Origin: an uncultured Oscillospiraceae bacterium
GTDB taxonomy: Bacteria > Bacillota > Clostridia > Oscillospirales > Oscillospiraceae
Length of the DNA: 64,000 nt
Assembly: GCA_947581795.1 (NCBI GenBank)
Contig: CANPVS010000013.1
Coordinates: 64-64,063 of the forward strand
Direction of reading: 5' to 3'
Shown here: one piece after another, positions 35,294 to 50,245 of the stretch
How the letters are laid out: each line of letters begins with the position of its first letter
How positions within the stretch are numbered: the first letter of the stretch is position 1
Notes under the pieces: model-generated
The model's input: the letters and a program-made list of their open reading frames with translations, nothing else
Told to the model about the DNA's origin: nothing
Database searches by the model: none
Made by a program: the position numbers and the translations under genes

Positions 35294-35491
35294 TTACTTC
35301 ATCTTGTCGAAGGCGGGGTTCACGGCGTAGACGTTCCGCTTATCCATCTTTCCGGTGGCGATGGCCATGGCCTCGCCGAAGCGCTGAAAATGGACCACCT
35401 CCCGCTCCCGCAGGAACCGCATGACGTCTATCACGTCCGGGTCGTCGCACATGCGCAGGATGTTGTCGTAGGTCACCCGGGCCTTCTGCTC
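35294..35491 (-). pseudogene. cotJC: cotJC 3' segment (C-terminal approx. 65 codons of Mn-catalase-family spore coat protein), separated from its 5' segment by the element
   Basis: Encodes EQKARVTYDNILRMCDDPDVIDVMRFLREREVVHFQRFGEA... The 14 N-terminal residues of ORF 35294..35533 derive from element DNA. Confidence 0.85.
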
Positions 35492-35500
35492 TGGTACGAC
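35490..35500. repeat. left att junction: TC crossover core plus 9-bp terminal inverted repeat TGGTACGAC
   Basis: Reverse complement of the right terminus GTCGTACCA. The core TC is shared with the right junction. Confidence 0.8.
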
Positions 35501-35520
35501 CATGTAAGTACAACAAATCG

Positions 35521-37074
35521 CTAAAAATTCCAATGGATTTCGATTGGAACATCCCTTGTGCCGGGGATTCGTTTGCCAATGGTCACATAGTCGATCAGTG
35601 TGTCCACAATCTCACGGGTAAGGTGTTCTAGGTTGGTGTACTGTTCTATCAACTCACGGCGGTTGTCGCCAGCGGCGATACGTTCTTCTATCTCTGACAA
35701 CTGCTTCTCACCATCAGCAACAACGTGTTCCAGCCTGTCGCGCTCCGTAATAAAGTCCTGGGACATTTCCCTGTAATCGCTCTCGGAGATCAGCCCCTTG
35801 ACTTTATCCAGATAAAGTTCCCGGATACCCTTGGAATACTCCGCTATCTTTTTCTGATAGGTGGCTATGTCTGACTTTAGACTAGATTTTTTCTCCTGAA
35901 GGCTGCCGCAAAACTCAATGTTTCGCTCCAACTCGTCCTTGTCAAGATACTCCGCTGACAGCCTATTCAACTCCGCCAGTACCATCTGTTCCAGTTTGTC
36001 AACGGCGATGAACGCCCCCTCGCAGGCATCTCTTGACACATGGCGGGTGCAGCATTGCAGATAGTGGCGGCCTCGGCTTTTGGACGAGCGCATGACATAG
36101 CCGCAATTAGCACAACGGGCTTTTCGGGCGAATAGACCTAGTTCCCCGCTGTCAAAGGGTTTGGCACGCTGGTCGATCAACGCTTGGACTCTATCCCATA
36201 GGTCGCGGTCAATGATAGGCTCATGGGTGCCTTTCACGATAATCCATTGATCTTTTGGCCTTGGCCTGCAAATCTTGGTCTTATAGGACACACTGGCGTA
36301 TTTGCCCTGTACCATATTACCAATATAGATTTCATTTGACAGCATATCCGCGATGGCGAAGTATTTCCAGAGAGTACTGTTCTTCGTGGCTGGCTGCATA
36401 TAGCGCAGACCGTGCAGGCGCTTGTACTCCGTGGGATTCGGAATGCCTCGGTCGTTGAGCATCCGTGCGATGGCGGTCTTGCCATAGCCCTGGGCAAAGA
36501 GAGTGAATACCTCCCGGACAACGGCGGCGGCTTCCTCGTCGATGATAAGATGGCCTTTCTGTTCAGGGTCTTTCAAATAGCCATAGAGAGCAAAGGCCCC
36601 AATGTGAAAGCCGTTTTCCCGGCGGCTGGTCAGTACGCTGCGGATATTCTCAGACATATCCTCCAAATACCACTCGTTCACCAGCCCATTGATTTGGCGG
36701 GATTTTTTGTTGCCCTTGTTGGCGGTATCGGCGTTGTCCACGATGCTGATAAAGCGGATGCCCCAGAGCGGGAAGAGACCGTGTATGTACTTCTCCACCA
36801 ACTCCAGCTCGCGGGTGAAGCGGGATTGAGTCTTACAGAGAACAATGTCAAATTTCCGCTGCTCCGCGTCCTGCAGGAGCCGATTGAACTCCGGCCGCCG
36901 TCGGTCTGACCCCGTGTAGTCGTCGTCACTGTAGATATTGAAAAGCTCCCACCCCTGTTCCATTACATATTGCAGCAGCATGGCTTTCTGATTCTGAATG
37001 CTGTTGCTGTCGTCGGTCGCGTGCTGCTTGTTTCGGTCTTCTTCGCTCAATCTGCAATAGATTGCTACCTTCAT
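35521..37074 (-). CDS. large serine recombinase (resolvase domain + recombinase/zinc-ribbon + DUF4368-like coiled-coil; TndX/TnpX-like)
   Basis: MKVAIYCRLSEED catalytic Ser region, SRFTRE motif and Zn ribbon CANCGY..C..H. GAAAGGAG RBS upstream. The ORF-track start at 37155 is rejected. Confidence 0.9.
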   Translation of the reverse strand: MKVAIYCRLSEEDRNKQHATDDSNSIQNQKAMLLQYVMEQGWELFNIYSDDDYTGSDRRRPEFNRLLQDAEQRKFDIVLCKTQSRFTRELELVEKYIHGLFPLWGIRFISIVDNADTANKGNKKSRQINGLVNEWYLEDMSENIRSVLTSRRENGFHIGAFALYGYLKDPEQKGHLIIDEEAAAVVREVFTLFAQGYGKTAIARMLNDRGIPNPTEYKRLHGLRYMQPATKNSTLWKYFAIADMLSNEIYIGNMVQGKYASVSYKTKICRPRPKDQWIIVKGTHEPIIDRDLWDRVQALIDQRAKPFDSGELGLFARKARCANCGYVMRSSKSRGRHYLQCCTRHVSRDACEGAFIAVDKLEQMVLAELNRLSAEYLDKDELERNIEFCGSLQEKKSSLKSDIATYQKKIAEYSKGIRELYLDKVKGLISESDYREMSQDFITERDRLEHVVADGEKQLSEIEERIAAGDNRRELIEQYTNLEHLTREIVDTLIDYVTIGKRIPGTRDVPIEIHWNF

Positions 37075-37098
37075 AGTCCATACTCCTTTCGGAGATAG

Positions 37099-37146
37099 GA
37101 CAAGCCGTTTCCGGCAGGTAGTATACCACGCCGGAAACGGCTTGTC
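37099..37146. repeat. 17-bp perfect inverted repeat (stem-loop) just upstream of the recombinase RBS
   Basis: GACAAGCCGTTTCCGGC, 14-nt loop, GCCGGAAACGGCTTGTC. Confidence 0.85.
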
Positions 37147-37160
37147 TATTTCCAATGTAA

Positions 37161-37346
37161 TTATAATGACTTGGCCTGTTTACCTCTTTCTATGCGGTTG
37201 ATCAAATCAATCCACCGCCTTGTGTACTCCTCCTTGGATGGCGAACTACCCCGGAATATGCTCGTGCACAGCGGCTGTGGCTGTTTATCAACAGCACTAG
37301 GATGATGTCGTGTCATCAATATCACCAGACCTATCTTATGCCACAT
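37161..37346 (-). CDS. hypothetical small protein (doubtful; possible directionality-factor position)
   Basis: 61-aa ORF with a weak RBS and no recognisable motif. Confidence 0.25.
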   Translation of the reverse strand: MWHKIGLVILMTRHHPSAVDKQPQPLCTSIFRGSSPSKEEYTRRWIDLINRIERGKQAKSL

Positions 37347-37373
37347 GAATGAGAGGTAGCACCCTAGTTGGCG

Positions 37374-37976
37374 CTACCTCTTGTTGTCCTTCTGCAGCTG
37401 CTCGCGCAGCCGCCGCATTCGCTCCACCTCGGCGGCGTCGGGCGCGGTCGTGACCGTCTGCTCCGGGGCTGGTGACGGGGTGCCACGCTCGCGGAGCGCC
37501 CATGTCTGCACGGTTGCCTTCCAGTCATCTATCGGCTGACCATTCAGCTTCCAGCCTCTCGCTTGGTAGTAGGAATGAAACAGGGCCGCATTGACCCGCA
37601 ACCCATTAGCCTCACAAAACTCCTCAACCTCTACGAGAGAGGGTGGGACCCCTGATTTTTCCTCTCGCTCTTTATCATTATACTTTATTTTATTTTCTTT
37701 TATTTTTCTTTTTCCTTTTCCTTTTCCTTTTCCGCGGTCAGCATTTTGGTCAAAAGCGATTCGTTTGGTATTTGTGTCCTCCAATTTCGCTGTGTAATAA
37801 TCGACAACAGAGATCATTCGCCTTAGATAGAATTTAGCGTTGCCCACGACATCGCTGACCTCGCCAGTCATTGCGTAGCGTTGCCCGGCGCGGATGAGGG
37901 AGCCATACTCCTCATCCGAAAGGGCGTCCATCTCGTCAACAAAAGAATCCAGGAGCACGATGTAATACCTTTCCAT
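37374..37976 (-). CDS. phage/plasmid-type DUF6291-like protein with Lys/Gly-rich linker
   Basis: N-terminus is YIVLLDSFVDEMDALSDEEYGSLIRA. C-terminus has FHSYYQARGWKLNGQPIDDWKATVQTW. GGGAGG RBS. Confidence 0.6.
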   Translation of the reverse strand: MERYYIVLLDSFVDEMDALSDEEYGSLIRAGQRYAMTGEVSDVVGNAKFYLRRMISVVDYYTAKLEDTNTKRIAFDQNADRGKGKGKGKRKIKENKIKYNDKEREEKSGVPPSLVEVEEFCEANGLRVNAALFHSYYQARGWKLNGQPIDDWKATVQTWALRERGTPSPAPEQTVTTAPDAAEVERMRRLREQLQKDNKR

Positions 37977-38095
37977 TTTGGACCTCCCAAAAAGTAAAGT
38001 GTAGGGGTCTTGCGTCCCCTCAACTATCTACCATGATTTTTTATGACAAAGTGGGGTGCCGCTACAAATTGTTTACACTTTGTTAACATTTGGAT

Positions 38096-38128
38096 ATAAA
38101 AAGACGGAGGGACTCTAGCCCCTCCGTC
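38096..38128 (-). terminator. rho-independent terminator after the sigma-like gene
   Basis: GACGGAGGG / CCCTCCGTC stem, followed on the minus strand by TTTTTATATCC. Confidence 0.7.
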
Positions 38129-38161
38129 TCGTGACGTACGCGCCCGCTCACGTCAACAGGG

Positions 38162-38629
38162 TTACCTTAGCGTGTCAGCAATGCGTTTGACAATCTCCCA
38201 TGCCCAGCGCACACGTTCGTAGCTCGCGCCAGTCATCTCTGCGATCTCAGTGGTGTCGAATCCAGCCCCGCGCATGAGCAACACATTCCGTTGGAAGTCG
38301 GTCAGTTGCTCGACGATGCTTTGGAGCGTAATACGTTGCAGCGCGATCTCCTCCGCGCTGGCTCCGTACTCATCACGGCTGTGCACGACCACATCGAGCA
38401 GTTCTGGGGTTGCGGACCGATCGAGGGGTACGTAACATTTGCATATGTGACAATCACCGATGCAGCGCTGCCACACCGCACACTCGCACTGCCCTGTGGT
38501 GCGCATAAGGCGATACAGCTTGTGGCTACCGCCCTCATACGCACGCAGCACTTGCAGAGTTACAGGCACGCGGATTTGCATAATCCTCCCATCAACGTTG
38601 GTCTCGACAAGAACATAATGATCTGCCAT
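38162..38629 (-). CDS. sigma-70 region-4-like HTH protein with Cys-rich N-terminal part
   Basis: C-terminus LTDFQRNVLLMRGAGFDTTEIAEMTGASYERVRWAW resembles sigma region 4. N-terminal part has CECAVWQRCIGDCHICKC. Confidence 0.6.
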   Translation of the reverse strand: MADHYVLVETNVDGRIMQIRVPVTLQVLRAYEGGSHKLYRLMRTTGQCECAVWQRCIGDCHICKCYVPLDRSATPELLDVVVHSRDEYGASAEEIALQRITLQSIVEQLTDFQRNVLLMRGAGFDTTEIAEMTGASYERVRWAWEIVKRIADTLR

Positions 38630-38740
38630 CGCAAATCCTGCGCAACACCCCGGAGGGTAGCATGACAATGGCAATAATAGACCTCGGGCGCAGGGACTAC
38701 CCACCACTGTCTATCCGGTAGTCCTGCGCCCTTTCTTTTG

Positions 38741-38785
38741 AAATAAAAAGGCGCCAGCAAAGATTAAATAATCTTCACTGGCGCC
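38741..38785 (-). terminator. intrinsic terminator/attenuator inside the leader upstream of the sigma-like gene
   Basis: GGCGCCAG..AAGATT-aaat-AATCTT..CTGGCGCC, followed on the minus strand by TTTTTATTTC. Confidence 0.6.
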
Positions 38786-38818
38786 ATTCCCTCACAAAAC
38801 ATGGAGGGAAATATGCTA

Positions 38819-38858
38819 CCCCGGCATAGCGTGTCCGTGGGGACACGCCATGCCGGGG
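38819..38858. repeat. long two-helix hairpin in the intergenic leader
   Basis: CCCCGGCAT-a-GCGTGTCC-gtgg-GGACACGC-c-ATGCCGGGG. Confidence 0.8.
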
Positions 38859-39075
38859 CGCATACTCGTGCGCTATTTGTCTGTAATTAGCATACACTAA
38901 CCTACGCTGGGCCTCTCGGCCCATACGATCTTGTAGTAACAGGCCGCTCTGGGCGGTCAACTTCCTTAGTATGTGTATTATGACTCGAAAAAGCTCTGAA
39001 GTCAACCTAATTTTATATAAATTTTTAAGAAAATTTGAAGTGCGCTTTCAATCGCGTTGGTTGCGCACTTGGTAC

Positions 39076-39105
39076 TTGACTGCCGAGGTCATCTCATGTT
39101 ATAAT
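39076..39105 (+). promoter_or_regulatory. sigma-A-type promoter of the methyltransferase/helicase operon
   Basis: TTGACT, 18-nt spacer, TATAAT. Confidence 0.55.
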
Positions 39106-39129
39106 GTTGAAAATTATATAATATTCAAC
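39106..39129. promoter_or_regulatory. 24-bp near-perfect palindrome (operator candidate) abutting the -10 box
   Basis: GTTGAAAATTATATAATATTCAAC, self-complementary at 22 of 24 positions. Confidence 0.5.
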
Positions 39130-39148
39130 ATATTAAGGGGTGATCAAG

Positions 39149-39793
39149 GTGACACAGATCAAGAGCAAAGAGCGGGTGCAACGGCATGGCGAGGTATTCA
39201 CGGCACAGCACGAGGTAACCGCTATGCTAGATTTGGTGCGGAAAGAGGCCAAGAGGATAGACAGCACCTTTTTGGAGCCTGCCTGCGGCAACGGTGCCTT
39301 TCTTGCTGAAATCCTCCGGCGCAAGCTGAACACGGTGTTTCGCATGGCTGGCATGAACGATGCGGACTGTGAGTATTGGGCGACTAGGGCCTTCTCTACC
39401 ATCTACGGCATAGACATCATGGCGGACAATATCGCAGAGGCCCGTGAACGCCTGTTCAATGACTTCTTTGCCCGGTTTCTCAACCGATACAAGCACCAGC
39501 CCACGCACATCTGCATGGACAGCATCCGCTTCATATTGAGCCAGAATATCCAGCAGGCCGATTCCCTGACGTGCAAGACGGGTGGGGGAACAGACCTCAT
39601 AATGACCTCATGGGTCTTTGACGAGAACGACGGTCTGACCATCGGTCTGTTCCGCTATGCCGATATGGTCCGCTCCGGGTGCAGCTGCAAGCCTCTCCGG
39701 GTCTTGCCGAAAATCCCGTATATGATGCTCCCGGCTATCTTTCGGAGTGATGAATGCTGGACATGGCAGACTAGTCATGGTAGAATAATATAG
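39149..39793 (+). CDS. DNA N6-adenine-methyltransferase-like protein lacking the NPPY catalytic motif and TRD (paralog A)
   Basis: HGEVFTA (motif X-like), LEPACGNGAFL (motif I), IYGIDI (motif II), QQADSL (motif III); DLIMTSWVF sits where FDxIxGNPPY is expected. GTG start after AAGGGG (alternative GTG at 39140). Confidence 0.7.
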   Translation: MTQIKSKERVQRHGEVFTAQHEVTAMLDLVRKEAKRIDSTFLEPACGNGAFLAEILRRKLNTVFRMAGMNDADCEYWATRAFSTIYGIDIMADNIAEARERLFNDFFARFLNRYKHQPTHICMDSIRFILSQNIQQADSLTCKTGGGTDLIMTSWVFDENDGLTIGLFRYADMVRSGCSCKPLRVLPKIPYMMLPAIFRSDECWTWQTSHGRII

Positions 39794-39828
39794 ATTATTG
39801 AGCAATATTCCATGCGGGGTGAGTACGT

Positions 39829-40491
39829 TTGGAGCAGCAGATCAAGTCAAAGCAGCGGGTGGCCGATCACGGCGAGGTGTTCACAGCCGAACGAGAAGTG
39901 AACGCTATGTTGGACATGGTTAAACAGGAAACGGAGCGAATCGACTCCCGCTTCCTGGAACCCGCCTGTGGTGAGGGAGCTTTCCTGGCCGAAGTGCTGC
40001 GACGGAAGCTGGCTGTCGTGAAGCAAAAGTACGGACGAAACCCATCAGACTATGAACTCTACGCTTTGATTGCCGTGACGAGCATTTACGGCGTGGATAT
40101 AATGGAGGACAACACCGAGAACTGCCGCAAGCGGCTATTCAAGATATGGAATAAAGAATACACCGCCGTTATGAAGAAAGAGGCGAACGACCGCTGCCGT
40201 GAGGTCGTAAAGTTTATCTTCAAGAAGAACATCCTTTGCGGCGATGCCCTAAAAATGGAGCAGCAGGACGGAACCCCGATCCTATTCGCAGAGTGGAGCC
40301 AAGTATCCGGCAGCCTTATCAAGAGAAGGGACTTTGAGCTGAACGAACTTCTGAAAGGCCATGAACGGCAGATGGACATGGATATGCTCCTCGGCGGCTG
40401 GGAGTACGACGAGGAAATAGACGCATATATCCCGGCACCTATAAAGGAATACCCACCGACTGATTATAGGAGGTTGGATGATTATGAATGA
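39829..40491 (+). CDS. DNA N6-adenine-methyltransferase-like protein lacking the NPPY catalytic motif and TRD (paralog B)
   Basis: HGEVFTA, LEPACGEGAFL, IYGVDI and ILCGDAL, then PILFAEWSQV with no NPPY. TTG start. The N-terminal approx. 60 aa are clearly paralogous to A. Confidence 0.7.
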   Translation: MEQQIKSKQRVADHGEVFTAEREVNAMLDMVKQETERIDSRFLEPACGEGAFLAEVLRRKLAVVKQKYGRNPSDYELYALIAVTSIYGVDIMEDNTENCRKRLFKIWNKEYTAVMKKEANDRCREVVKFIFKKNILCGDALKMEQQDGTPILFAEWSQVSGSLIKRRDFELNELLKGHERQMDMDMLLGGWEYDEEIDAYIPAPIKEYPPTDYRRLDDYE

Positions 40492-42103
40492 TGATTTTTT
40501 CGATGCTGTTTATAACCCGGATGTTCTGTCCTGCATCGCAAACTTGAGCAGCGACGAGGTATTCACGCCGCCCGGTATTGCAAATGATGTTCTGGATATG
40601 CTGCCCCAGGAGCTTTTCCAAAGCCGGGACACCACCTTCCTTGACCCCGGCTCCAAGAGCGGTATCTTTTTGCGGGAGATCGCAAAGCGGCTCCTCAGAG
40701 CGCAGATTCCAGGCTATGAACGGATCGCCCGAGAAATACGCCAGAAACAGCGTGAAGGGGGCACACTGGACCCGGACGAGGAATCCTTTTTGGAAGTCCT
40801 ACAGGAGAACATAGACCACATCTTTCATAACCAGCTTTTCGGTATTGCTGTTACTGAACTTACCAGCCTTCTTTCCAGGCGGAGCGTCTACTGTTCCAAA
40901 TTCCCAAACAGTGAGTTCTCCATTTCTCATTTCGACTCCGCGGAGGGAAATATCCGTTTCCGGCGCACCCAGCACATTTGGGATAAGAACGGAAGTTGTA
41001 AGTATTGTGGCGCATCCAAAGAATTATATGACCGAGGGGATAAGCTGGAAACCCATGCGTATGAGTTCATCCACACGAAAAAGCCGGAGGATATTTTCTC
41101 GATGAAGTTTGATGTTATTATCAGTAATCCGCCATACGCCCAGGACACAGCAGGGGCTGGCCGTCAAGCCAAACCCCTTTATAATTTGTTTGTTGAACAA
41201 GCGAAAAAACTTCATCCACGGTATCTGTGTATGATTATTCCGTCTCGCTGGTTTTCTGGCGGCATGGGTCTGGATGATTTCCGTAAATCCATGATTTCGG
41301 ATGCTCATATCACAAAGATGGTTGACTTCACCAATTCAAAAGATTGTTTTCCAGGGGTCAGCGTAAGCGGCGGCGTGTCATATTTTCTGTGGGAACGGGA
41401 CAAAACATCTGAATGTGAGTTTACTAATATAACGAATGGTGAAACAAATGTGATGGTACGCCCGTTAAATGAGTTCTCGACCCTCGTTAGATACAACAGC
41501 GCTGTTTCAATCATCCACAAGGTCAACGCTCTGACAAAGGAGAAACTTGAAACTATTATTAGTTCTCTTATGCCCTATGGGCTGTCCACCAGCTATCGCG
41601 GCAGAGCACTAAAAACAGAGAGGAGCCAACTCACGTTGTATGCCAGTAATGGTGTGACATATATAAATCGGAACGAGATCACAAAGGGACTTGAAACAGT
41701 CGATAAATATAAAATCCTTGTGAGTAAGACAAGCGCGGAGCACGCGGGAGAACCTGGGAACGATGGTAAATTCAAGGTTATCCCTTCGTCCATGAAGGTC
41801 ATTGGCCCTGGGGATGTGTGTACCCATTCATATTTCATTATTGGAAATTGGGACAGCGAATCTCCCGCTAAAAACGCCCTGTCTTACATGAGGACAAAGT
41901 TTGTCAGATTCTTGATGCTACTTTGTATCAGCGGCTTTGGTCTATCCAAAATTGTCTTTCCATTTGTACCAATGCAAGACTTCTCTAAGCCTTGGACAGA
42001 CAAAGAATTGTATGCGAAGTATGGCCTGACGGATAAAGAAATCGAGTTCATCGAATCTATGATTAAGCCTATGGACGGCGCAGATGAAGATGTTGAGCCG
42101 TAA
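40478..42103 (+). CDS. Eco57I-family (gamma-class) N6-adenine DNA methyltransferase with C-terminal putative target-recognition region
   Basis: DEVFTPP (motif X), FLDPGSKSGIFL (motif I) and VIISNPPYAQ (motif IV). 541 aa. Overlaps paralog B by 14 nt. Confidence 0.85.
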   Translation: MIMNDDFFDAVYNPDVLSCIANLSSDEVFTPPGIANDVLDMLPQELFQSRDTTFLDPGSKSGIFLREIAKRLLRAQIPGYERIAREIRQKQREGGTLDPDEESFLEVLQENIDHIFHNQLFGIAVTELTSLLSRRSVYCSKFPNSEFSISHFDSAEGNIRFRRTQHIWDKNGSCKYCGASKELYDRGDKLETHAYEFIHTKKPEDIFSMKFDVIISNPPYAQDTAGAGRQAKPLYNLFVEQAKKLHPRYLCMIIPSRWFSGGMGLDDFRKSMISDAHITKMVDFTNSKDCFPGVSVSGGVSYFLWERDKTSECEFTNITNGETNVMVRPLNEFSTLVRYNSAVSIIHKVNALTKEKLETIISSLMPYGLSTSYRGRALKTERSQLTLYASNGVTYINRNEITKGLETVDKYKILVSKTSAEHAGEPGNDGKFKVIPSSMKVIGPGDVCTHSYFIIGNWDSESPAKNALSYMRTKFVRFLMLLCISGFGLSKIVFPFVPMQDFSKPWTDKELYAKYGLTDKEIEFIESMIKPMDGADEDVEP

Positions 42104-42650
42104 CGAGGAATACTACGACCGTTACACCGAACTTCAGGACCTGGTTCTGCGGGCCTATATTGACGTGCTGTCCCTTGAAGAAATAACCTCTGCTGTAGGG
42201 ACAAACCAAGACAGCCATATTGAAATGCTGGATGTCAGCATCAACGCCTTGGGCCATATCTGTGAACTGCTGAAGGCAGATATGGCGCTTACCATCTGGA
42301 AGATTTACTATGAATCGTATGGCTGGGCGAATAACATTGGAAATCTGAACCGTGATTTCTTCGCGCCTCGCGGTGAGCGCCGAGAAACAAAACTCCCAAA
42401 GGACCTTAAAACATACAAGGCACCCATTCAAACCCTACGAAAAGAATACCTTGCTCATAACAGCGCCGAGAAAAGCGGAACGAGCATATCCGTGCAGGCG
42501 TTAAGGGCTGTTCTGGATGCCATAAAGGATTTGCTGAACGGATTGTGCGATCCCACGCTGGACAGCCGCGTGGAACCTGTCACAGAGTCCGCTTTGTACA
42601 CGCTGGATATAAACGTAAAACTCGGCCTTGGTACAGTCATCAGAAAGTGA
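42084..42650 (+). CDS. hypothetical helical protein, HEPN-like (AbiU2-type) candidate
   Basis: 188 aa. RKEYLAH fits the HEPN Rx4-6H motif near the expected position. Overlaps the MTase stop by 20 nt. Confidence 0.45.
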   Translation: MKMLSRNEEYYDRYTELQDLVLRAYIDVLSLEEITSAVGTNQDSHIEMLDVSINALGHICELLKADMALTIWKIYYESYGWANNIGNLNRDFFAPRGERRETKLPKDLKTYKAPIQTLRKEYLAHNSAEKSGTSISVQALRAVLDAIKDLLNGLCDPTLDSRVEPVTESALYTLDINVKLGLGTVIRK

Positions 42651-42686
42651 TGTGCTTTTCTGCCAGGCAAAATGGAGGGTCATCCT

Positions 42687-45674
42687 ATGCCCAACACTGA
42701 TTTCTTCCCGTCGCGTCCAAAAACTTTTCCCCAAGTGTATGCCTATACCATTCCCGGTCTGAAGACGCATGAGGGATATATCAAAGTAGGCTACACGGAG
42801 CGTGAGAACGCGAGTGAGCGTATTCGAGAACAGCTGCATACGGCTGGCATAAAGCACGACCTTCTGTTCATCGAATCTGCTATGCGGACAGATGGCAGCA
42901 GCTTTACCGACTATGATGTTCACAGAGTGCTTCGCAGAAAGGGGTATCCCCAGCTGAACGAGGGGGAGGACAGAAACGAATGGTTCAAGTGTAGTGCGGA
43001 CGCTGTTCGCGCTGCGATCATAGCCGTTCGGGATAGGACCGACAACGCAGAGGAGCGGTCTCAGTCTTTTCCGATGCGCCCGGAACAGGCCCGCGCCGTG
43101 CAGGTGACAACTGACTATTTTCGGAGGGTCAGCCAGGACGAGCCGGGTAGGCGGCCCAAATTCCTTTGGAACGCGAAGATGCGCTTTGGCAAGACTTTTG
43201 CCTCGTATGAGCTGGCAAAGGCCATGGGACTGAAACGGATATTGGTGCTGACATTCAAGCCTGCGGTAGAATCCGCCTGGCGGGATGATCTTATGACCCA
43301 TGTGGATTTTGAAGGCTGGCAGTTCGTATCCAATAAGGACGCGCACAACAACAATCTGAACATCGACGAGCAGTATGCCAAGACGGACAAAAGCAGACCC
43401 ATCGTGGTGTTTGGTTCCTTTCAGGACCTACTCGGAACGAATGAAAATGGCGGTATCAAGGCCAAGAACGAGTTCATCCATACGAACAACTGGGATTTAG
43501 TCATCTTCGATGAATACCACTTCGGCGCATGGCGTGAAAACGCTGCCAAGCTGTTTGAACGCCCGGACGAAGAAAAAGACGTGGACTTCGATGCCGAGGA
43601 ATACAGCAAAGAAGAAGCAGGAAACGCCTTCAACGAGACGTTCATTGAGATCACAACGAAATACTATCTGTTTCTCTCGGGCACGCCGTTCCGTGCCCTC
43701 AACTCCGGCGAGTTCATAGAGGAGCAGATATACAACTGGACGTACTCTGACGAGCAGCGGGCAAAGGAACAATGGCCGTACCTTGCTGATTTCCCCGAAT
43801 ACCATGCCCAACCCAGCGACACAAACCCCTATGCCGCCCTTCCTCGCATGGTGATGCTCACATACCGTATCCCCGATGACATCCGCAGAGTAGCGCAGCA
43901 GGGAGAGTTTAACGAGTTCGACCTAAATGAGTTCTTCGCGGCTAAACCTGCAGAGAAGGGCAAGCCAGAAACATCCCGATTCGTGCATGAGAATGAAGTC
44001 CAGAAATGGCTTGATCTTATCAGAGGAGCGCATCTCCCTTCATCTATAGACGAGTTGAAGCTGGACGCTGGAAAACGCCCGCCCATGCCGTACTCTGACA
44101 GCAACTTGCGCGGGATATTGAGCCATACGCTGTGGTTCCTGCCGAATGTGGCAAGCTGCTTTGCCATGTTTAATCTGCTGATGCAGCGTCAAAACGGCTT
44201 CTATAATAACTATTACACTATCAAGGTGTGCGCTGGGTCAAAGGCTGGCATAGGCTTGGATGCGCTCGCTCCCATACGACAGGCGATGGGGAACCCGCTG
44301 GAAACACAGACCATCACCCTGTCCTGCGGCAAGCTGACGACGGGCGTAACGGTAAAGCCCTGGTCTGGCGTGTTCATGCTGCGCAACCTGAAAAGCCCGG
44401 AAACTTACTTCCAGACAGCTTTCCGTGTCCAGTCCCCATGGACTATACAGGACAATGAGGGCAAGACGCAAATCATCAAGAGGGAGTGCTATGTTTTTGA
44501 CTTTGCTCTGGACAGAGCACTCCGACAAATCTCCGATTATGCCCGCAGTCTGGATGTAAAGGGAGATAAAAGCCCGGAAGAAAAGGTGGCCGAGTTCATT
44601 CAATTTCTGCCCGTTTTGGCGTACAACGGCAGTTCTATGCAGCAAGTGGACGCACAGGCCATTTTGGACATCGCTATGTCCGGCACCTCTGCTACACTTC
44701 TTGCGCGGCGGTGGCAATCCGCTCTGCTGGTGAATGTCGATAATACGACGCTGCAAAGACTTCTTGCCAGCCAGGAGGCCATGGATGCTCTCAGCAGGAT
44801 CGAAGATTTCAGAAATTTGAATCAGGACATCGAGATCATCATCAACAGGTCTGAAAGCGTAAAGAAGGCAAAAACAAAGGGAGAAAAGATGACTCCCCAA
44901 GAGAAGGAGAAGGTAAAGGAGGATGAAAACGAGTTCAAGAGCCGCCGGAGAGACATCCAGAAAAAGCTGATTAAGTTTGCCAGCCGTATCCCGCTGTTTA
45001 TGTATCTGACCGACTACCGTGAGCGGACGCTAAAAGACGTAATCACGCAAATTGAGCCGGGGCTGTTTATGAAGGTCACGGGGCTGGATACCAAAGACTT
45101 TGAGCTTCTGTGCTCCCTGGGGGTGTTCAACGCTGGGCTGATGACCGATTCTATCTTCAAATTCAGAAGATACGAGGATGCGTCCCTGTCCTATGCTGGC
45201 ATCGACAAGAACGCGGATAAGGCTGTCGGCGGCTGGGACACTGTTCTCCGCAGAGAGGAATATGAGAGGCTGTATTATACGCAGCAGTCCTCTATGTCTG
45301 CAGGAGTGGTGGAGGAATACGCGGAAGATGCAGAACAGACCCCAGCCGAGACTGTAAAGCCCATAGAGGTGAAAAAGCCAAAAGAAACAGCACCCAAAGC
45401 CACTGTGCCAAAAGTTGCAGTTGCGCCGAGCCGTACACAAGCCCCCACTCCTGCACCTGCAAAAGTGCCGTTAAAACCGTTTTTCAGCAAAGCACAGGCT
45501 TACACGCCACCGAATGTCAAAGTTGGCGATGATGTGAACCACAAGAAGTTTGGAAAAGGTGCTGTTGTTGCTTTAGACCCGGTAGCAAAATACATCCGCG
45601 TTCAGTTTTCAGAGGGCGAGAAGTCGTTTATATTCCCGGATGCGTTCAAAAACGGTTTTTTGAGCATTAAATGA
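42687..45674 (+). CDS. GIY-YIG/T5orf172-like nuclease domain fused to SF2 (type III Res-like) helicase with long C-terminal extension
   Basis: N-terminus is VYAYTIPG..GYIKVGYTER...NEWF. Helicase motifs are MRFGKTF (I), FDEYH (II) and QTAFRVQSP (VI). C-terminus is HKKFGKGAVV (UvrD/PcrA-tail-like). GGAGGG RBS (alternative ATG at 42672). Confidence 0.8.
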   Translation: MPNTDFFPSRPKTFPQVYAYTIPGLKTHEGYIKVGYTERENASERIREQLHTAGIKHDLLFIESAMRTDGSSFTDYDVHRVLRRKGYPQLNEGEDRNEWFKCSADAVRAAIIAVRDRTDNAEERSQSFPMRPEQARAVQVTTDYFRRVSQDEPGRRPKFLWNAKMRFGKTFASYELAKAMGLKRILVLTFKPAVESAWRDDLMTHVDFEGWQFVSNKDAHNNNLNIDEQYAKTDKSRPIVVFGSFQDLLGTNENGGIKAKNEFIHTNNWDLVIFDEYHFGAWRENAAKLFERPDEEKDVDFDAEEYSKEEAGNAFNETFIEITTKYYLFLSGTPFRALNSGEFIEEQIYNWTYSDEQRAKEQWPYLADFPEYHAQPSDTNPYAALPRMVMLTYRIPDDIRRVAQQGEFNEFDLNEFFAAKPAEKGKPETSRFVHENEVQKWLDLIRGAHLPSSIDELKLDAGKRPPMPYSDSNLRGILSHTLWFLPNVASCFAMFNLLMQRQNGFYNNYYTIKVCAGSKAGIGLDALAPIRQAMGNPLETQTITLSCGKLTTGVTVKPWSGVFMLRNLKSPETYFQTAFRVQSPWTIQDNEGKTQIIKRECYVFDFALDRALRQISDYARSLDVKGDKSPEEKVAEFIQFLPVLAYNGSSMQQVDAQAILDIAMSGTSATLLARRWQSALLVNVDNTTLQRLLASQEAMDALSRIEDFRNLNQDIEIIINRSESVKKAKTKGEKMTPQEKEKVKEDENEFKSRRRDIQKKLIKFASRIPLFMYLTDYRERTLKDVITQIEPGLFMKVTGLDTKDFELLCSLGVFNAGLMTDSIFKFRRYEDASLSYAGIDKNADKAVGGWDTVLRREEYERLYYTQQSSMSAGVVEEYAEDAEQTPAETVKPIEVKKPKETAPKATVPKVAVAPSRTQAPTPAPAKVPLKPFFSKAQAYTPPNVKVGDDVNHKKFGKGAVVALDPVAKYIRVQFSEGEKSFIFPDAFKNGFLSIK

Positions 45675-45686
45675 GAGGAGATCAGA

Positions 45687-45869
45687 ATGGCAAGACAGAA
45701 AAAGGATGGGCATTATATTAACTGCTATCTTGATCGGAACCTCTATAACCGACTCTGCTATTATGCGGAGGAGAAAGGACAGACAAAGACCCTCGCCATT
45801 GAGAGAATCCTAAAGGAGCACTTCGATAAAAGCGGCGTTCCAGCAGAGGTTGATACTCCAAAGGATTGA
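45687..45869 (+). CDS. ribbon-helix-helix (Arc/CopG-like) protein
   Basis: 60 aa with beta-strand YINCYL followed by two helices (NLYNRLCYYAEEKGQTKTLAIERILKEHF). GAGGAG RBS. Confidence 0.6.
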   Translation: MARQKKDGHYINCYLDRNLYNRLCYYAEEKGQTKTLAIERILKEHFDKSGVPAEVDTPKD

Positions 45870-45881
45870 GACAGCAAAAAA

Positions 45882-45917
45882 GGACAGAATCTCCACTCTG
45901 GAGGTGCTGTCCTTTTA
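45882..45917 (+). terminator. rho-independent terminator ending the operon
   Basis: GGACAG..CTCCA-ctc-TGGAG..CTGTCC followed by TTTT. Confidence 0.7.
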
Positions 45918-45933
45918 CACAAACAGGCGGCAG

Positions 45934-45953
45934 TTTGTGTGTGCACTTTCAAA
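45934..45953 (+). repeat. 20-bp direct repeat, copy 1
   Basis: TTTGTGTGTGCACTTTCAAA. Matches 19 of 20 positions with 46640..46659. Confidence 0.85.
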
Positions 45954-45959
45954 AACAGA

Positions 45960-45980
45960 GGGGCGGCTTGATACCGCCCC
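45960..45980 (-). terminator. terminator hairpin after the DUF2442 gene
   Basis: GGGGCGG-cttgata-CCGCCCC, followed on the minus strand by TCTGTTTTTG. Confidence 0.65.
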
Positions 45981-45985
45981 TGCAT

Positions 45986-46288
45986 TTACGCCGTTTCCAG
46001 CACACCCAGCGGGTCATCCACGATGGGGGCTTTCTCAAAAATCGTGAAGCTGTCCAAGTCCACGCAGGCCGTCGTATCCCGGTTCCCAGCAATATCCCAG
46101 GCCACAGCATCATTCAGCACCGTTAGGCGTTCCCGGAAAAATGCGGGGTCGGCCAGCGGCGCGAATACGCCGCCCTTGGCGATATAAGGTTTTACATCCA
46201 CCAGGCGGACGGCCCCGTCGCTGCAGTAAGCATAAACAGTGAAGTCGTCGCCGGGGATGACCTGCACAACAGCGGGAAAAAGTTCCAT
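45986..46288 (-). CDS. DUF2442 domain protein
   Basis: 100 aa with FTVYAYCSDGAVRLVDVKPY and VAWDIAGN motifs typical of DUF2442. Confidence 0.8.
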   Translation of the reverse strand: MELFPAVVQVIPGDDFTVYAYCSDGAVRLVDVKPYIAKGGVFAPLADPAFFRERLTVLNDAVAWDIAGNRDTTACVDLDSFTIFEKAPIVDDPLGVLETA

Positions 46289-46301
46289 GGTATGATCTCC
46301 T

Positions 46302-46562
46302 TTACATAAGCGGCTCGATCTGCTTCAGCGGCTGCTGATCTTTGGCAAGTTCCCAGTTTTGCATCAGCTCATCCCGGTGCATCTCGCCCCAGGCAAGGAC
46401 AAATTTCAACTGCCGGAACGGGAGCGCCCCTCTGATAACGTAACCGCGCTGAATGTCTATGAGGGCCTTATACCCGGCATATTCCGCGTGGAAGTGCGGT
46501 GGGTTGTGGTCGTCATAGAACATTTTTATCCGTATGCCGCCAAACAGAGAAATCTCCGGCAT
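46302..46562 (-). CDS. DUF4160 domain protein
   Basis: MPEISLFGGIRIKMFYDDHNPPHFHAEY signature. Confidence 0.85.
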   Translation of the reverse strand: MPEISLFGGIRIKMFYDDHNPPHFHAEYAGYKALIDIQRGYVIRGALPFRQLKFVLAWGEMHRDELMQNWELAKDQQPLKQIEPLM

Positions 46563-46639
46563 GGTACGGCCTCCTTTTTGCAGCGACTTTTCATTAAAAC
46601 TAGTGTATCATATTTTGCTCCAAATCACAACACCCGACA

Positions 46640-46659
46640 TTTGCGTGTGCACTTTCAAA
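46640..46659 (+). repeat. 20-bp direct repeat, copy 2
   Basis: TTTGCGTGTGCACTTTCAAA. Confidence 0.85.
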
Positions 46660-46660
46660 T

Positions 46661-46694
46661 GATGTGAGGGACGGCTCAGGCCGTCCCTCACATC
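46661..46694. terminator. 15-bp perfect hairpin after the SprT-like gene
   Basis: GATGTGAGGGACGGC-tcag-GCCGTCCCTCACATC. Overlaps the stop codon. Confidence 0.65.
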
Positions 46695-47337
46695 ATACCT
46701 CTATCATCTGGCGCATACAGTCGCCGCACAGGATGTTGACCTTTTTCGTGGCCCTCACGCTCTGACCGCAGACGGGACAGGCCAGTTTGCGGGTGCTGCT
46801 GGGGCGTTTGCCGCCCAGGAGCGGTTCCCCGGCCTGGGCGGTGCCGCCTGCGCCAAGCCGTATCATGGGCGGTAGAGTGGAGCGGCCTATTTTTATCTCA
46901 GACCAGCCTTTTGAAAGTGCATACTCAACGAGATTGTCGCCGGGCTTGGTGTTCCAGCCGTATTGACCCTGACGAAAGCAGGTAAGGCCGTGGGCCTCGG
47001 CAATCGCTTTGAACAGCCCATTGTGGTACTTGCCGCCTCGGCTCACCTCTTTGATGCCGTGCTCCCGGCAATAGATATGCACCATCTCATGGAGCATGGT
47101 GTCGATGGTTTCCTCTATGGGGTAGGAAAGCACCTCGGCGGCGATGTTCAGCTCATAGGTGCTGTCCTCTTGCCTGCGCCAGACCTTGGCGACGGAACTG
47201 TGGCCGTAGGTGCCGGGTTTGCTCTGCACAGTGATAATGGGCGTGGGCAGCTCGCTGGCGAAGAAATCGGTGTTGAGGCAGTTAAAAATGTGCTCCAGCT
47301 GACTGACGGCGCGGGACATCTTGGTGGTGGGCTTCAT
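46693..47337 (-). CDS. SprT-like zinc metalloprotease domain protein with C-terminal zinc ribbon
   Basis: HEMVH motif and CPVCG...CGDC. GGGAGG RBS before the ATG at 47337. Confidence 0.75.
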   Translation of the reverse strand: MKPTTKMSRAVSQLEHIFNCLNTDFFASELPTPIITVQSKPGTYGHSSVAKVWRRQEDSTYELNIAAEVLSYPIEETIDTMLHEMVHIYCREHGIKEVSRGGKYHNGLFKAIAEAHGLTCFRQGQYGWNTKPGDNLVEYALSKGWSEIKIGRSTLPPMIRLGAGGTAQAGEPLLGGKRPSSTRKLACPVCGQSVRATKKVNILCGDCMRQMIEV

Positions 47338-47455
47338 AGTGGTGTACCTCCCATAATGTAATATGTGTGATAGCAAAGCGGCTCGCTCGCTTTGCTTGCT
47401 TACAGGAGGCACACCCGCCCGCACGGTCAAGACTGGCCCACAGGGCCACTCGCGC

Positions 47456-47499
47456 AAAAAATTTTCCTCCCAGCCTCACGGCCAGGAGGAAAAATTTTT
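47456..47499. terminator. A/T-flanked hairpin after the coupling-protein gene
   Basis: AAAAAATTTTCCTCC, loop, GGAGGAAAAATTTTT. Confidence 0.6.
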
Positions 47500-47540
47500 G
47501 CTGGTCTTTACCGTGTCCCAGGGGCGCGGTGTGCTATGTG

Positions 47541-49145: not shown

Positions 49146-49888
49146 CTCTGCGCCCCCGTCCCTTTATAGCAACGATATTTCAAGAGACTATGGCTCTCTT
49201 TGGACTTCGCTTCTCGGAGTACCTCCCCGACATCTACACCTGCTGGCTCTATGTAGGTGTTGTGGTGTATGTTCGCCATCAGGATACGCTCGTCCATACA
49301 GGACAGCGGCATCGTGAGCAGATTAACACCTATCCGGCTTGCCACAGTTTGGATATTCTTGCCGATGCTGGGTGGCTTGTCGGGGACGAGCCACGTTTGC
49401 CCCTCAAAAATATCGTTTGAAACGATGTTCCGTTCCAGCACAGCGATGGGCTTGTGGTTCAACTCTACCTCAAAAGCCTTTCCACGCAGCACGATATCAG
49501 GACGGTGTGCCTTGCGGCTAAAATAAGGCATCATGTCCCGGTCAACGATCATGTCAAATATGCTGACCCGGTCGGTGATGCAGAGCCATGTACAGGCACG
49601 TCCCACCATCAGAGCATGGTAGGTCGTATAGCTTACTTCATAGGTCCTGCCAGTAGACTTTCCTATCTCTCTCATACCAGCTGCCGTCAAGAAGTAACAC
49701 TTTGCTCCCAGACAGTCACGTACCGTCTGTAGTAGACCCATCCGCACCAACTCCATCAATTTCTTCCGACAGAATGTCACATCCGTAAAACCCGCCAGCC
49801 ATGCCAGTTCCAATGCCTGGACTATCCGCAGCTTGTCGATGATCTCAAGCATCCGATATTCACGTTCACCAAGTTTTTTGATTACCAT
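49142..49888 (-). CDS. replication-relaxation (Replic_Relax) family protein
   Basis: 248 aa with an N-terminal winged-helix-like part (REYRMLEIIDKLRIVQALELAWLAG). Overlaps the coupling-protein start by 4 nt. Confidence 0.6.
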   Translation of the reverse strand: MVIKKLGEREYRMLEIIDKLRIVQALELAWLAGFTDVTFCRKKLMELVRMGLLQTVRDCLGAKCYFLTAAGMREIGKSTGRTYEVSYTTYHALMVGRACTWLCITDRVSIFDMIVDRDMMPYFSRKAHRPDIVLRGKAFEVELNHKPIAVLERNIVSNDIFEGQTWLVPDKPPSIGKNIQTVASRIGVNLLTMPLSCMDERILMANIHHNTYIEPAGVDVGEVLREAKSKESHSLLKYRCYKGTGAQR

Positions 49889-50011
49889 AGTTCATGAACC
49901 CTCCTTGTATTATCCAGACCGAACGCCGCGCAACGACGCGCGCGCAAAACCTCGATACCCGTTGCTGCCATTTCCCGGCCCGGTATGACCTGCTGTCATG
50001 CACCATGTTGT

Positions 50012-50052
50012 CCGTCCGGGGTTCCGGGGTGGAACGCCGGAACCCCGGACGG
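50012..50052. repeat. 16-bp perfect inverted repeat (oriT / structural hairpin candidate)
   Basis: CCGTCCGGGGTTCCGG-ggtggaacg-CCGGAACCCCGGACGG, in the noncoding segment upstream of the relaxase-like gene. Confidence 0.8.
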
Positions 50053-50245
50053 CAACCCTTGGTGCTGGCGGGTCGCCGGACCGCAAATGGCGCAAATGCG
50101 CGCGCGACGATGGGCGGCGATTCGGGCCAATAAATTAAAAGACCTCATGCACAAAGCCAGTGCATAAGGTCTAAACGGAAACAGCTTGTCCCATCATAAA
50201 TTATGGGTTTTCTCCAATTATTTGTGGCTATGTTGTCCTTTCCAC

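Follow-up and report, generated by a model that had tools for sequence, protein, structure and literature searches.

Two short open reading frames, ORF A and ORF B, lie in tandem directly 5' of a DNA methylase gene in a 64,000-nucleotide stretch of an uncultured Oscillospiraceae genome (the window), and both resemble the cofactor-binding part of a methylase and have no catalytic motif. The question raised by this locus is what such proteins are and what they do beside a methylase that carries this motif. The original prediction treated them as an unknown class of pseudo-enzymes, a view that is abandoned here: ORF B is almost certainly the M1 subunit of a DrdVI-type system, and ORF A is a rarer extra, diverged copy of the same catalogued M1 family, not a new kind of protein. 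The features of the locus, in coordinates of the window, are the following.

39076 to 39105, plus strand: predicted promoter-like site 5' of ORF A, with TTGACT, an 18-nt spacer and TG-TATAAT (11/12 hexamer matches, extended -10 TG)
39099 to 39136, no strand assigned: AT-rich palindrome with 24-nt overlapping arms, 88% complementary, covering the -10 region and the ORF A leader
39149 to 39793, plus strand: ORF A, GTG start, 214 aa, second, diverged M1-like subunit
39829 to 40491, plus strand: ORF B, TTG start, 220 aa, M1.DrdVI ortholog, small subunit of a predicted split methylase
40478 to 42103, plus strand: M2, 541 aa, Eco57I-family gamma-class N6-adenine methylase (Pfam Eco57I, 2.3e-37)
42084 to 42650, plus strand: 188-aa ORF in a variable slot between M2 and R
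42672 to 45674, plus strand: R, 1000 aa, N-terminal T5orf172/GIY-YIG-type nuclease fused to an SF2 (ResIII) translocase

The non-ATG starts that had been predicted for both ORFs are confirmed. The GTG of ORF A at 39149 is the start picked by public gene calls (P0121), and with an alternative in-frame GTG upstream, at 39140, the protein would be 217 aa long; ORF B starts with TTG at 39829 and its sequence is identical to P0001. By sequence inspection, purine-rich stretches resembling ribosome-binding sites precede the starts of ORF A and ORF B (AAGGGG; GGGGTGAG). The two proteins share 48% identity over about 153 residues (6-158 of ORF A and 4-156 of ORF B; BLASTP E 2e-50), which is far above chance, and their C-terminal ~60 residues do not align, so they are tandem paralogs with closely similar N-termini and diverged tails, as first described. 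The divergence of the tails does not come from a frameshift, since no other frame of ORF A encodes a B-like tail.

ORF A and ORF B both contain HGEVFT (motif X), FLEPACGxGAFL (motif I), IYG(V/I)DI (motif II) and NI..(G/A)D(A/S)L (motif III), in the gamma order. At the position of NPPY, ORF B has ILFAEW and ORF A has LIMTSW, and both proteins stop 60-65 residues past strand 4 with no target-recognition domain (TRD). Motif IV, (D/N/S)PP(Y/F/W), is absent from ORF A, ORF B and all 240 closest homologs, and a search of these homologs for an overlooked catalytic motif in the wider form (D/N/S)PP(Y/F/W/H) gave 0/240. Across the M1 family this position reads [FILMVT][ASTPVI][EKQST]W with an invariant Trp; the common forms are F-[AS]-E-W among B-type proteins and I-T-x-W among A-type ones. 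Invariant columns of the family include G15, E16, V17, T19, E44, P45, C47, G48, G50, and F52, and further Y87, G88, D94, N95, N134, and I135, while D90 is near-invariant; the conserved C-terminal tail of M1, with KRRDF, WEYDEE, and P-x4-P, has no counterpart in methylases. Judged by these motifs, ORF A and ORF B would each correspond to the SAM-binding half of a gamma-class methylase. Having neither motif IV nor a TRD, they do not qualify as catalytically competent N6-adenine methylases.

Profile searches of ORF A and ORF B match only the N-terminal part of gamma-class N6-adenine methylases. The match of ORF B to PF20473 MmeI_Mtase (E 4.8e-5) is under the Pfam cut-off, and the short methylase-like ORFs also match PADLOC MTase_II (3.5e-10) and the PHROG family "DNA methyltransferase" (4e-13). 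The AF2 model of ORF B is confident, with a pLDDT of 82.9 and a pTM of 0.80. Foldseek with this model gives weak matches (best E 0.09), in which ~105 N-terminal residues align to CamA and PglX, and the matches to the Type ISP structures 4xqk and 5ffj are insignificant. A PDB sequence search with the ORF B family profile and with M2 returned nothing useful (best E 0.042 and 0.27). The fold of the C-terminal part of ORF B stays unclassified because the Foldseek matches are weak and N-terminal only.

The system to which these genes belong was found via the name of a plasmid record, pDrdVI. The DrdVI system is from Deinococcus wulumuqiensis NEB 479, plasmid pDrdVI (Fomenkov et al. 2019, PMC6430315); it is filed in REBASE as Type IIG. 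[quoted passage not shown] ORF B is 41% identical to M1.DrdVI over 212 aa (E 1e-51) and ORF A 38% over 154 aa (E 4e-30), M2 is 42% identical to M2.DrdVI in 556 aligned columns (E 2e-148), and R is 52% identical to the pDrdVI helicase over 871 aa. The window and pDrdVI have the same three genes in the same order, M1-M2-R, with significant full-length similarity of each, and M1.DrdVI also has canonical motifs X, I, II, and III, VVEW at the NPPY position, and no TRD. Unlike the window, where A and B are in tandem, pDrdVI has a single M1; the window has in addition the extra 188-aa gene between M2 and R, and its M2 has another recognition region. On sequence grounds, the segment 39149-45674 is a DrdVI-type restriction-modification operon formed by ORF B as M1, the 541-aa M2, and the 1000-aa R. 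In Methanococcus aeolicus, M1/M2.MaeIV were cloned together and give single-strand m6A at GCACY (PMC10113651). The REBASE authors name the family "split methylase/RM genes" and regard M1 and M2 as parts of a single methylase. In the literature searched, M1 and M2 are always cloned together, and neither a published biochemical role for M1 nor a proof that M1 is required was found.

The promoter-like site at 39076 to 39105 is probably the operon promoter, as judged from a consensus match only, and the palindrome that covers its -10 region is a possible operator. No convincing terminator-like site occurs on the plus strand from ORF A to the end of the helicase gene. M2 overlaps ORF B by 14 nt at the B stop and M2 start, and it contains DEVFTPP, FLDPGSKSG, SNPPY (residues 216-220), a C-terminal DNA-recognition region, and a Cys/His-rich insertion. 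The profile matches of R are T5orf172 (1.7e-7) and ResIII (5.5e-6). Most loci have no gene between M2 and R, L107 and L017 have unrelated genes there, and the 188-aa ORF matches no significant family in profile searches (HEPN_AbiU2 at E 0.0076 only); it is probably cargo rather than a core part.

M1, M2, and R are linked across many phyla. The trio is found in almost all of 80 GTDB loci picked through M1, being present where the contig allows with two clear exceptions, and these loci span Bacillota, Bacteroidota, Actinomycetota, Cyanobacteria, Chloroflexota, Pseudomonadota, Spirochaetes, and Patescibacteria. Among metagenome loci picked through M2, M1 is immediately 5' of M2 in 65/66 and R is 3' of M2 in 60/61. 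The M1 stop and the M2 start typically overlap by 8 nt, and M1 remains a separate gene even in loci that encode R and M2 as a single fusion protein of ~1440 aa. The functional tie to the neighbouring methylase and helicase-nuclease that the original prediction had proposed is borne out by this linkage and by the orthology to DrdVI. A small serine invertase is present in some loci, and at most one of them (L010) has a candidate invertible promoter. DNA exchange between M1 and M2 driven by an invertase was considered and rejected: no long inverted repeats join the two genes and the protein similarity is only ~30%.

The motifs of M1 and M2 are complementary. The canonical [ED]P[ASC]CGxG is present in 238/240 M1 homologs, none of which has an NPPY-like motif, and among M2 homologs an NPPY-like motif is present in 119/120 and the Lys-substituted motif I, DPxxK[ST]G, in 118/120, as in the window (DPxxKSG). 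In a fused Enterococcus form the M2 loop is degraded further (FADLYVKSG). The adjacent methylase had been described as complete; given its altered motif I, it is probably not self-sufficient. Three natural fusions (P0393, P0423, and P0450) join the N-half of M1 to the C-half of M2 at three different junctions, and since the own N-half of M2 is deleted in them, the result is an orthodox X-I-II-III-IV-TRD methylase; one of them, P0423, is an orphan methylase found on 3 contigs.

These observations are consistent with a model in which M1 would be the stand-alone cofactor-binding half of a gamma-class N6-adenine methylase, with X, I, II, and III intact and Trp in place of NPPY, translated in step with M2. 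M2, whose own glycine loop is altered, would give the catalytic NPPY loop and the DNA-recognition domain, the two would assemble into an active methylase that marks one strand of the asymmetric site, and R, with its GIY-YIG nuclease and ATP-dependent translocase, would then attack unmarked DNA. ORF A would most likely be an alternative or auxiliary M1-type subunit that is present in a minority of systems and keeps the SAM-binding residues. Taken as a whole, this statement, with ORF B and M2 as an active split methylase, R attacking unmarked DNA and ORF A as an auxiliary M1, is favoured here with moderate confidence. The orthology to DrdVI, the gene linkage, the purifying selection, the complementary motifs and the natural fusions are observed, whereas SAM binding by M1, a need of M2 for M1 in methylation and any function of ORF A are inferred. 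Residues 125-205 of M2, which are strongly conserved and have a predicted pLDDT of 30-59, would fit a segment that becomes ordered on a partner.

Several observations go against this model. M2 alone may bind SAM, because its N-half is strongly conserved, including DEVFTPP (motif X) and an invariant Glu after strand 2, and its predicted fold is like that of complete methylases: the best matches are CamA, BrxX/PglX, M.TaqI, and MmeI, with an end-to-end match to complete methylases such as CamA (TM about 0.5). Lys at the first glycine position of motif I is unusual, but a disabling effect is not proven, and M.TaqI has Ala at this position. One locus (L128) has M2 and R with no upstream M1, and the M1::M2 fusion proteins could be non-functional recombinants. 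To our knowledge, there is no structural precedent for a half-Rossmann subunit that lends its cofactor to a catalytic loop on another chain.

A rival possibility, which we regard as somewhat unlikely, is that M2 is self-sufficient and that M1 (ORF B, and with it ORF A) is a pseudo-enzyme without catalytic activity that serves as a regulatory or adaptor subunit. Such a subunit might sense SAM to license the translocase-nuclease, by comparison with the use of SAM in Type I and Type III enzymes, might couple M2 to R, or might set the balance between methylation and restriction. The conserved N-half of M2, with motif X and the acidic residue after strand 2, and a model resembling the single-chain methylases CamA and M.TaqI are in line with this idea, and so are the separate M1 gene beside fused R and M2, as a regulatory subunit might be, the conserved M1 tail, which could be a docking element, and the invariant SAM-contacting motifs of M1, which a sensor would need. 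However, a regulatory function leaves unexplained why the glycine loop of M2 is Lys-substituted systematically and only in M1-partnered enzymes, as well as the intact ORFs in which the N-half of M2 is replaced by that of M1, and it departs from the REBASE authors' view of M1 and M2 as pieces of one enzyme. Nothing was found that speaks positively for the SAM-sensor or regulator idea of the original prediction, which stays a live rival.

A stronger form of the split-methylase model is rather doubtful. In this form M1 would be the only functional SAM site, with a pocket across the subunit interface or made by a domain swap and with the M2 copy crippled, the SAM occupancy of M1 would gate the translocase-nuclease, and ORF A would be an alternative M1 that changes the output of the complex, for example modification only versus restriction. 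If true, the choice of subunit would be a new layer of control in restriction systems.

Selection on the two genes bears on two further explanations. ORF B has a dN/dS of 0.05-0.06, which means strong purifying selection, whereas ORF A, at 0.19-0.24, is more relaxed and evolves ~4x faster. B-type proteins are uniformly ~219 aa long and A-type proteins ~200 aa, and no frameshift is found, so with these dN/dS values a pseudogene or decay fragment is rejected, and the ORFs are intact as predicted. Another suggestion in the original prediction, that A and B act as decoys by binding anti-restriction proteins of phages (such as DNA mimics or methylase inhibitors) and so shield the real methylase, is scarcely credible. 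Both have ~30% identity to the N-half of the adjacent methylase, and Ocr-type inhibitors bind related methylases according to PDB titles; a decoy would be expected to evolve fast in order to track its target surface, but M1 is among the most conserved parts of the system, and invariant SAM-pocket residues would be needless. M1 is tightly coupled to M2 in translation and is nearly obligate across phyla, which indicates a core subunit, and nothing was found in support of a decoy.

A single M1 is found in most loci, and the tandem of A and B is the unusual part of the window. A second M1-like copy is present in 0/66 M2-selected loci and 2/80 M1-selected loci. In all 7/7 contexts examined, a B-type copy follows the A type (the window, L017, L021, L025, L106, L107, and L001-L005). 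The A type is a rare coherent subfamily of ~200 aa (P0122-P0167) with its own conserved tail, C.C..P...LPRIPYLLLPAII, and A-type genes with identities as low as 44% occur in different elements; without exception they are intact and lie 5' of a B type. Between the window and L107, ORF B is 90% identical and M2 only 60% overall, because the recognition region is swapped.

ORF B could be the working M1 and ORF A a recent duplicate that drifts to loss or has no role of its own, which appears improbable. The faster evolution of ORF A fits such a drift, with a nearly neutral tail (dN/dS 0.33-0.63 in the last 45-55 codons), as do the loss of the motif III glycine in the window lineage (NIQQADSL), the C-terminal end that varies between the window, L106, and L107, and the rarity of second copies. 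Against it stand the coherence of the A-type subfamily with its tail, its intact and constantly placed genes, and the dN/dS of 0.15-0.16 over the first 150 codons, a clear sign of purifying selection. An alternative or auxiliary M1-type subunit remains the preferred reading of ORF A; what suggests a role is the conservation seen in its sequence, with the last ~20 residues differing between close relatives.

The original claim is in this way deflated to members of a catalogued subunit family plus one diverged extra copy. DrdVI-type systems are very common and little covered in the literature searched: the B-type family of ~219 aa has >8000 homolog clusters at 90% identity, M1 forms 1644 clusters at 50% identity (E up to 1e-10), and relatives of M1 are encoded by at least 565 stretches of the species-representative genome set. 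The linkage, the motif split, and the fusions make the half-methylase question directly testable, and the tandem of A and B is a rare natural variant that could help to separate the roles of M1. In annotation, M1 goes under either "N-6 DNA methylase" or "hypothetical", and an M2 considered by itself may wrongly be counted as an active orphan methylase.

Among known systems, DnmA(YeeA)-YeeB-YeeC, a proposed Type I-like arrangement with separate subunits (Morgan et al. 2009, PMC2731913; PMC9973331), shares with the window a gamma-class adenine methylase that is related to MmeI and modifies a single strand, together with an SF2 helicase and a nuclease of the T5orf172/GIY-YIG type. It is the only related cluster to which literature searches on this domain combination led. 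DnmA is a single long polypeptide of the MmeI type that has an additional N-terminal domain, whereas the window methylase has a separate N-half-like partner; the helicase and nuclease, fused in the window, are separate genes in YeeB/YeeC, and a small M1-type gene is not described there. The Type ISP enzymes LlaGI and LlaBIII share a nuclease, an SF2 translocase, a gamma-class methylase, a TRD, and the logic of one-strand methylation, and part of R together with the C-half of M2 matches one PADLOC model, a 1359-residue fused enzyme. Type ISP enzymes differ in that all these parts are on one polypeptide, the nuclease is of the Mrr/PD-(D/E)XK kind, and an M1-like partner is lacking; membership in Type ISP is rejected for the locus in the window, which has three to five separate genes and a nuclease of the T5orf172/GIY-YIG type. 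Mechanistically, the DrdVI-type system looks like a split Type ISP or a Type I-like system. Named defence systems are not matched either: PADLOC gives only the generic MTase_II and REase_MTase_IIG models, and the NCBIfam matches to MADS MAD2 and BREX PglX are far under cut-off.

M.AquI alpha/beta and M.EcoHK31I alpha/beta have one catalytic domain distributed over two polypeptides; they are C5-cytosine enzymes, cut once, with no duplicated half. METTL3-METTL14 and DNMT3A-DNMT3L pair an active methylase with an inactive paralog whose fold is still methylase-like. The M2 of the window has retained a degenerate version of the half corresponding to M1, and by analogy the window system would sit between "split" and "dead paralog" methylases.

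ORF A and ORF B are tandem paralogs at the head of five genes that, judged from the sequence, look like one operon, since a strong promoter-like site lies upstream of A (39076-39105) and no convincing plus-strand terminator is seen in the window before the end of the helicase gene. The first four genes are:

39149-39793, plus strand: ORF A, intact, GTG start, 214 aa as in public gene calls (database protein P0121)
39829-40491, plus strand: ORF B, intact, TTG start, 220 aa, identical to database protein P0001
40478-42103, plus strand: M2, Eco57I-family methylase, 541 aa, its start overlapped for 14 nt by the end of B
42084-42650: ORF between M2 and R, 188 aa, no family, with only a weak HEPN_AbiU2 match (E 0.0076)

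The last gene encodes R, a 1000-aa protein in which a T5orf172/GIY-YIG-type domain at the N-terminus precedes an SF2 (ResIII) helicase core. The mechanical start of ORF A is an in-frame GTG at 39140. An AT-rich palindrome at 39099-39136 (TTATAATGTTGAAAATTATATAATATTCAACATATTAA) overlaps the -10 element of the strongest promoter-like site, ends 12 nt before the start of A and may be an operator for a controller protein. A divergent 181-aa ORF at 38162-38707 weakly matches sigma-70 region 4 (E 2e-4). Short ORFs (55-61 aa) come after R in several contexts that are otherwise unrelated, at 45687-45869 (plus strand) in the window and in the loci L014 (12364-12549), L017 (15064-15249) and L021 (13992-14159); the L014 copy is annotated as DUF6472 and the window copy has no Pfam match.

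Residues 6-158 of A and 4-156 of B share 48% identity (BLASTP, E 2e-50), and the last ~60 residues of the two proteins do not align. A frameshift is ruled out as the cause of this divergence, as a B-like tail is absent from the other reading frames of A. In profile searches A and B match gamma-class N6-adenine methylases over the N-terminal part of those enzymes only, with all scores below the curated cut-offs. The dN/dS of B, calculated against the closest relatives (loci L106 and L107), is 0.048-0.060 and uniform along the length, while that of A is 0.19-0.24 overall, with 0.15-0.16 over the first 150 codons against 0.33-0.63 over the tail; at its very C-terminal end A differs among the window, L106 and L107. 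Both ORFs are under purifying selection, which excludes a pseudogene reading. The original prediction, which described two intact tandem paralogs unlikely to be simple decay products and quoted motif strings that are indeed present in the sequence, holds in these respects.

A tblastn search of plasmids found pDrdVI of Deinococcus wulumuqiensis NEB 479, which encodes, in the same order as the window, a 212-aa "DNA methyltransferase", a 539-aa Eco57I-domain protein and an 851-aa helicase. The 212-aa protein matches B at 41% over 212 aa (E 1e-51) and A at 38% over 154 aa (E 4e-30), the 539-aa protein matches the window methylase at 42% (E 2e-148) and the 851-aa protein matches the window helicase at 52% over 871 aa. 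DrdVI is described as "a fused translocase and REase" with a GIY-YIG domain, and its M1.DrdVI and M2.DrdVI are named, in the Bibersteinia methylome study (PMC4996451); DrdVI is also treated by Fomenkov et al. (PMC6430315). From this match and the published descriptions, B is almost certainly the M1 subunit of a DrdVI-type restriction-modification system, with the 541-aa enzyme as M2 and the 1000-aa protein as R. The interpretation in the original prediction is supported in part: A and B are non-catalytic half-methylases with SAM motifs, tied to the neighbouring enzymes. They do not form a new protein class, as B joins the REBASE M1.DrdVI family and A is a rare extra paralog. Nothing was found in favour of decoys for phage anti-restriction proteins. 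The family keeps a moderate, specialist interest, since it is very large and the role of M1 is unaddressed in the DrdVI literature searched, in which M1 and M2 are always cloned together and M1 is nowhere assayed on its own.

More than 8000 clusters of B homologs exist, nearly all of 218-222 aa among the matches listed, and the best 120 of them are 69-90% identical to B. B homologs recurrently stand in a cassette of the small protein, an Eco57I-domain methylase of ~510 aa and a T5orf172-helicase of ~950-1000 aa. The linkage was checked in both directions, in 80 loci selected by M1 (one genome per species) and in 66 metagenome loci selected by M2 that had sufficient upstream sequence. The M1-selected loci, from organisms as varied as Oscillospiraceae, Bifidobacterium, Pontibacter, Pseudanabaena, Azoarcus, Anaerolineae and Patescibacteria, carry the M1-M2-R trio wherever the contig is long enough, except for an IS-disrupted copy (L068) and a lone M1 beside housekeeping genes (L064). 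The M2-selected loci have the small gene immediately upstream in 65/66 and the helicase downstream in 60/61, and the end of M1 usually overlaps the start of M2 by 8 nt. The one locus with M2 and R that lacks an upstream M1 (L128, 1775-6569) encodes there an unknown protein of 336 aa and another of 727 aa, the latter with two methylase-like parts, of which one is of C5-cytosine type; it could serve as a natural test of M2 working without M1. A serine invertase of ~200 aa, absent from the window, lies directly upstream of M1 in ~12/80 genome loci and 10/80 metagenome loci, L007, L010 and L014 among them. At L010, 23-nt inverted repeats (7793-7815 and 7950-7972) flank 134 nt between invertase and M1, a candidate invertible promoter for phase-variable expression.

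In an alignment of 38 sequences of the A and B subfamilies together, the invariant M1 columns are the cofactor-side motifs. These are motif X (G15-E16-V17-x-T19), motif I (E44-P45-x-C47-G48-x-G50-x-F52-L53), motif II (Y87-G88 and D94-N95 invariant, D90 nearly so) and motif III (N134-I135 with G138 and L141); Trp156, at the end of the strand where the catalytic NPPY would sit, is also invariant. The canonical [ED]P[ASC]CGxG loop is found in 238/240 of the closest M1 homologs and a (D/N/S)PP(Y/F/W/H) motif in none of these 240, so no catalytic motif had been overlooked. M2 homologs have NPPY in 119/120, and 118/120 carry DPxxK[ST]G as motif I, Lys replacing the first glycine; in motif II the G+2 position is Ala rather than Asp/Glu, with an invariant Glu three residues later. 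One M1 homolog, P0452 (278 aa), has DPPY at residue 36, upstream of its M1-like region (62-215); a piece of another class of methylase may have been fused to it, or its start may be mis-called.

M1 residues 16 to ~140 are ~30% identical to the N-terminal half of M2, which thus holds a diverged copy of an M1-type module. A scan with A over 1.84 billion cluster representatives (E up to 1e-10) gave 1644 clusters, nearly all of 170-260 aa; three of them are long proteins, P0393 (580 aa), P0423 (500 aa) and P0450 (491 aa). In all three the M1 N-half is joined, at a different junction each time, to an M2 C-half that starts at FDVIIGNPPY; these proteins lack the M2 N-half and have the orthodox single-chain order X-I-II-III-IV-TRD (target-recognition domain). 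P0423 occurs on three contigs as an orphan beside a serine recombinase, without helicase. These natural fusions indicate, at the sequence level, that evolution has treated the M1 and M2 N-halves as interchangeable. R and M2 are fused (~1440 aa) on Enterococcus, Bacillus and Levilactobacillus plasmids, with M1 still a separate gene, which lies downstream in Levilactobacillus; in the Enterococcus form the M2 loop is degraded further (FADLYVKSG).

On balance, M1 is somewhat more likely than not the working cofactor module, given the DrdVI orthology, the near-obligate M1-M2-R linkage with coupled translation, the constrained cofactor motifs, the complementary motif loss in M1 and M2 and the natural M1-M2 fusions. 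The main alternative, a self-sufficient M2 with M1 as a non-catalytic regulator, adaptor or SAM sensor, is less likely, and is favoured by the conserved N-half of M2, the conserved non-methylase tail of M1, the separate M1 of every architecture and the predicted M2 fold, that of a whole methylase. The AlphaFold model of M2 (pLDDT 74.9) matches CamA, BrxX/PglX, BpuSI, M.TaqI and MmeI, with TM ~0.5 and E values as low as 1.5e-14. Over residues 125-205 the pLDDT is 30-59, although this part of M2 includes TELTSLLSRRSxYCSK and a Cys/His-rich insertion, among its most conserved residues; this is compatible with, and not proof of, ordering on a partner. The confident model of B (pLDDT 82.9, pTM 0.80) begins with helix-strand-helix units like those in the first half of Rossmann-type methylases. 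A beta hairpin with Trp156 follows, and after it come another, small hairpin and a C-terminal helix; the match to solved methylases (CamA, PglX) is weak and covers only ~105 residues.

ORF A belongs to a smaller, coherent subfamily (P0122-P0167) whose members are ~200 aa long, share a conserved tail of their own and occur in different elements, with identities as low as 44%. In the A-type loci examined a B-type gene always comes next, followed by methylase and helicase. Second M1-like copies are rare (0/66 M2-selected and 2/80 M1-selected loci). What these data support for A is no more than a functional, faster-evolving second M1-type subunit; that it is a drifting duplicate, as its higher dN/dS might suggest, is improbable.

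Between the window and L107, B is 90% and the R N-terminus 95% identical, and M2 is ~82% identical in the first 200 residues and ~30% at residues 350-500 (window 41525-41980). The M2 recognition module was swapped between close relatives, implying another target sequence. The slot between M2 and R, in which 0.35-2.1 kb is inserted in ~12/57 loci, holds unrelated genes (188 aa in the window, 42084-42650; 236 aa in L107, 4670-5380; 392 aa in L017, 10947-12125) in operons that otherwise closely resemble each other; these genes may be hitch-hikers with a defence or accessory role. The constant parts of the system are thus M1, R and the M2 core, and its swappable parts the recognition region and the gene inserted in this slot.

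The whole operon lies on a ~14.7 kb island, within 35294-50661, by which a Mn-catalase (CotJC-like) gene is interrupted:

35294-35533 and 50218-50661, both minus strand: Mn-catalase gene fragments, split at Pfam profile position ~149/150
35521-37155, minus strand: large serine recombinase, at one end of the island

Its cargo also includes a TraG/VirD4-like ATPase, a SprT-like protein and a DUF4160/DUF2442 pair, and the same insertion recurs in further metagenome contigs (L001, L002). The island has the look of an "intervening element" in a sporulation-coat gene, excisable by the recombinase.

With M1 as the cofactor module, the "split methylase" reading, M1 would bind SAM and M2 would need M1 for methylation. 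R would translocate and cut unmarked DNA. The window genes are orthologous to those of DrdVI, for which m6A activity is documented with M1 and M2 together, and their complex, like DrdVI and MaeIV, would mark an asymmetric site on a single strand.
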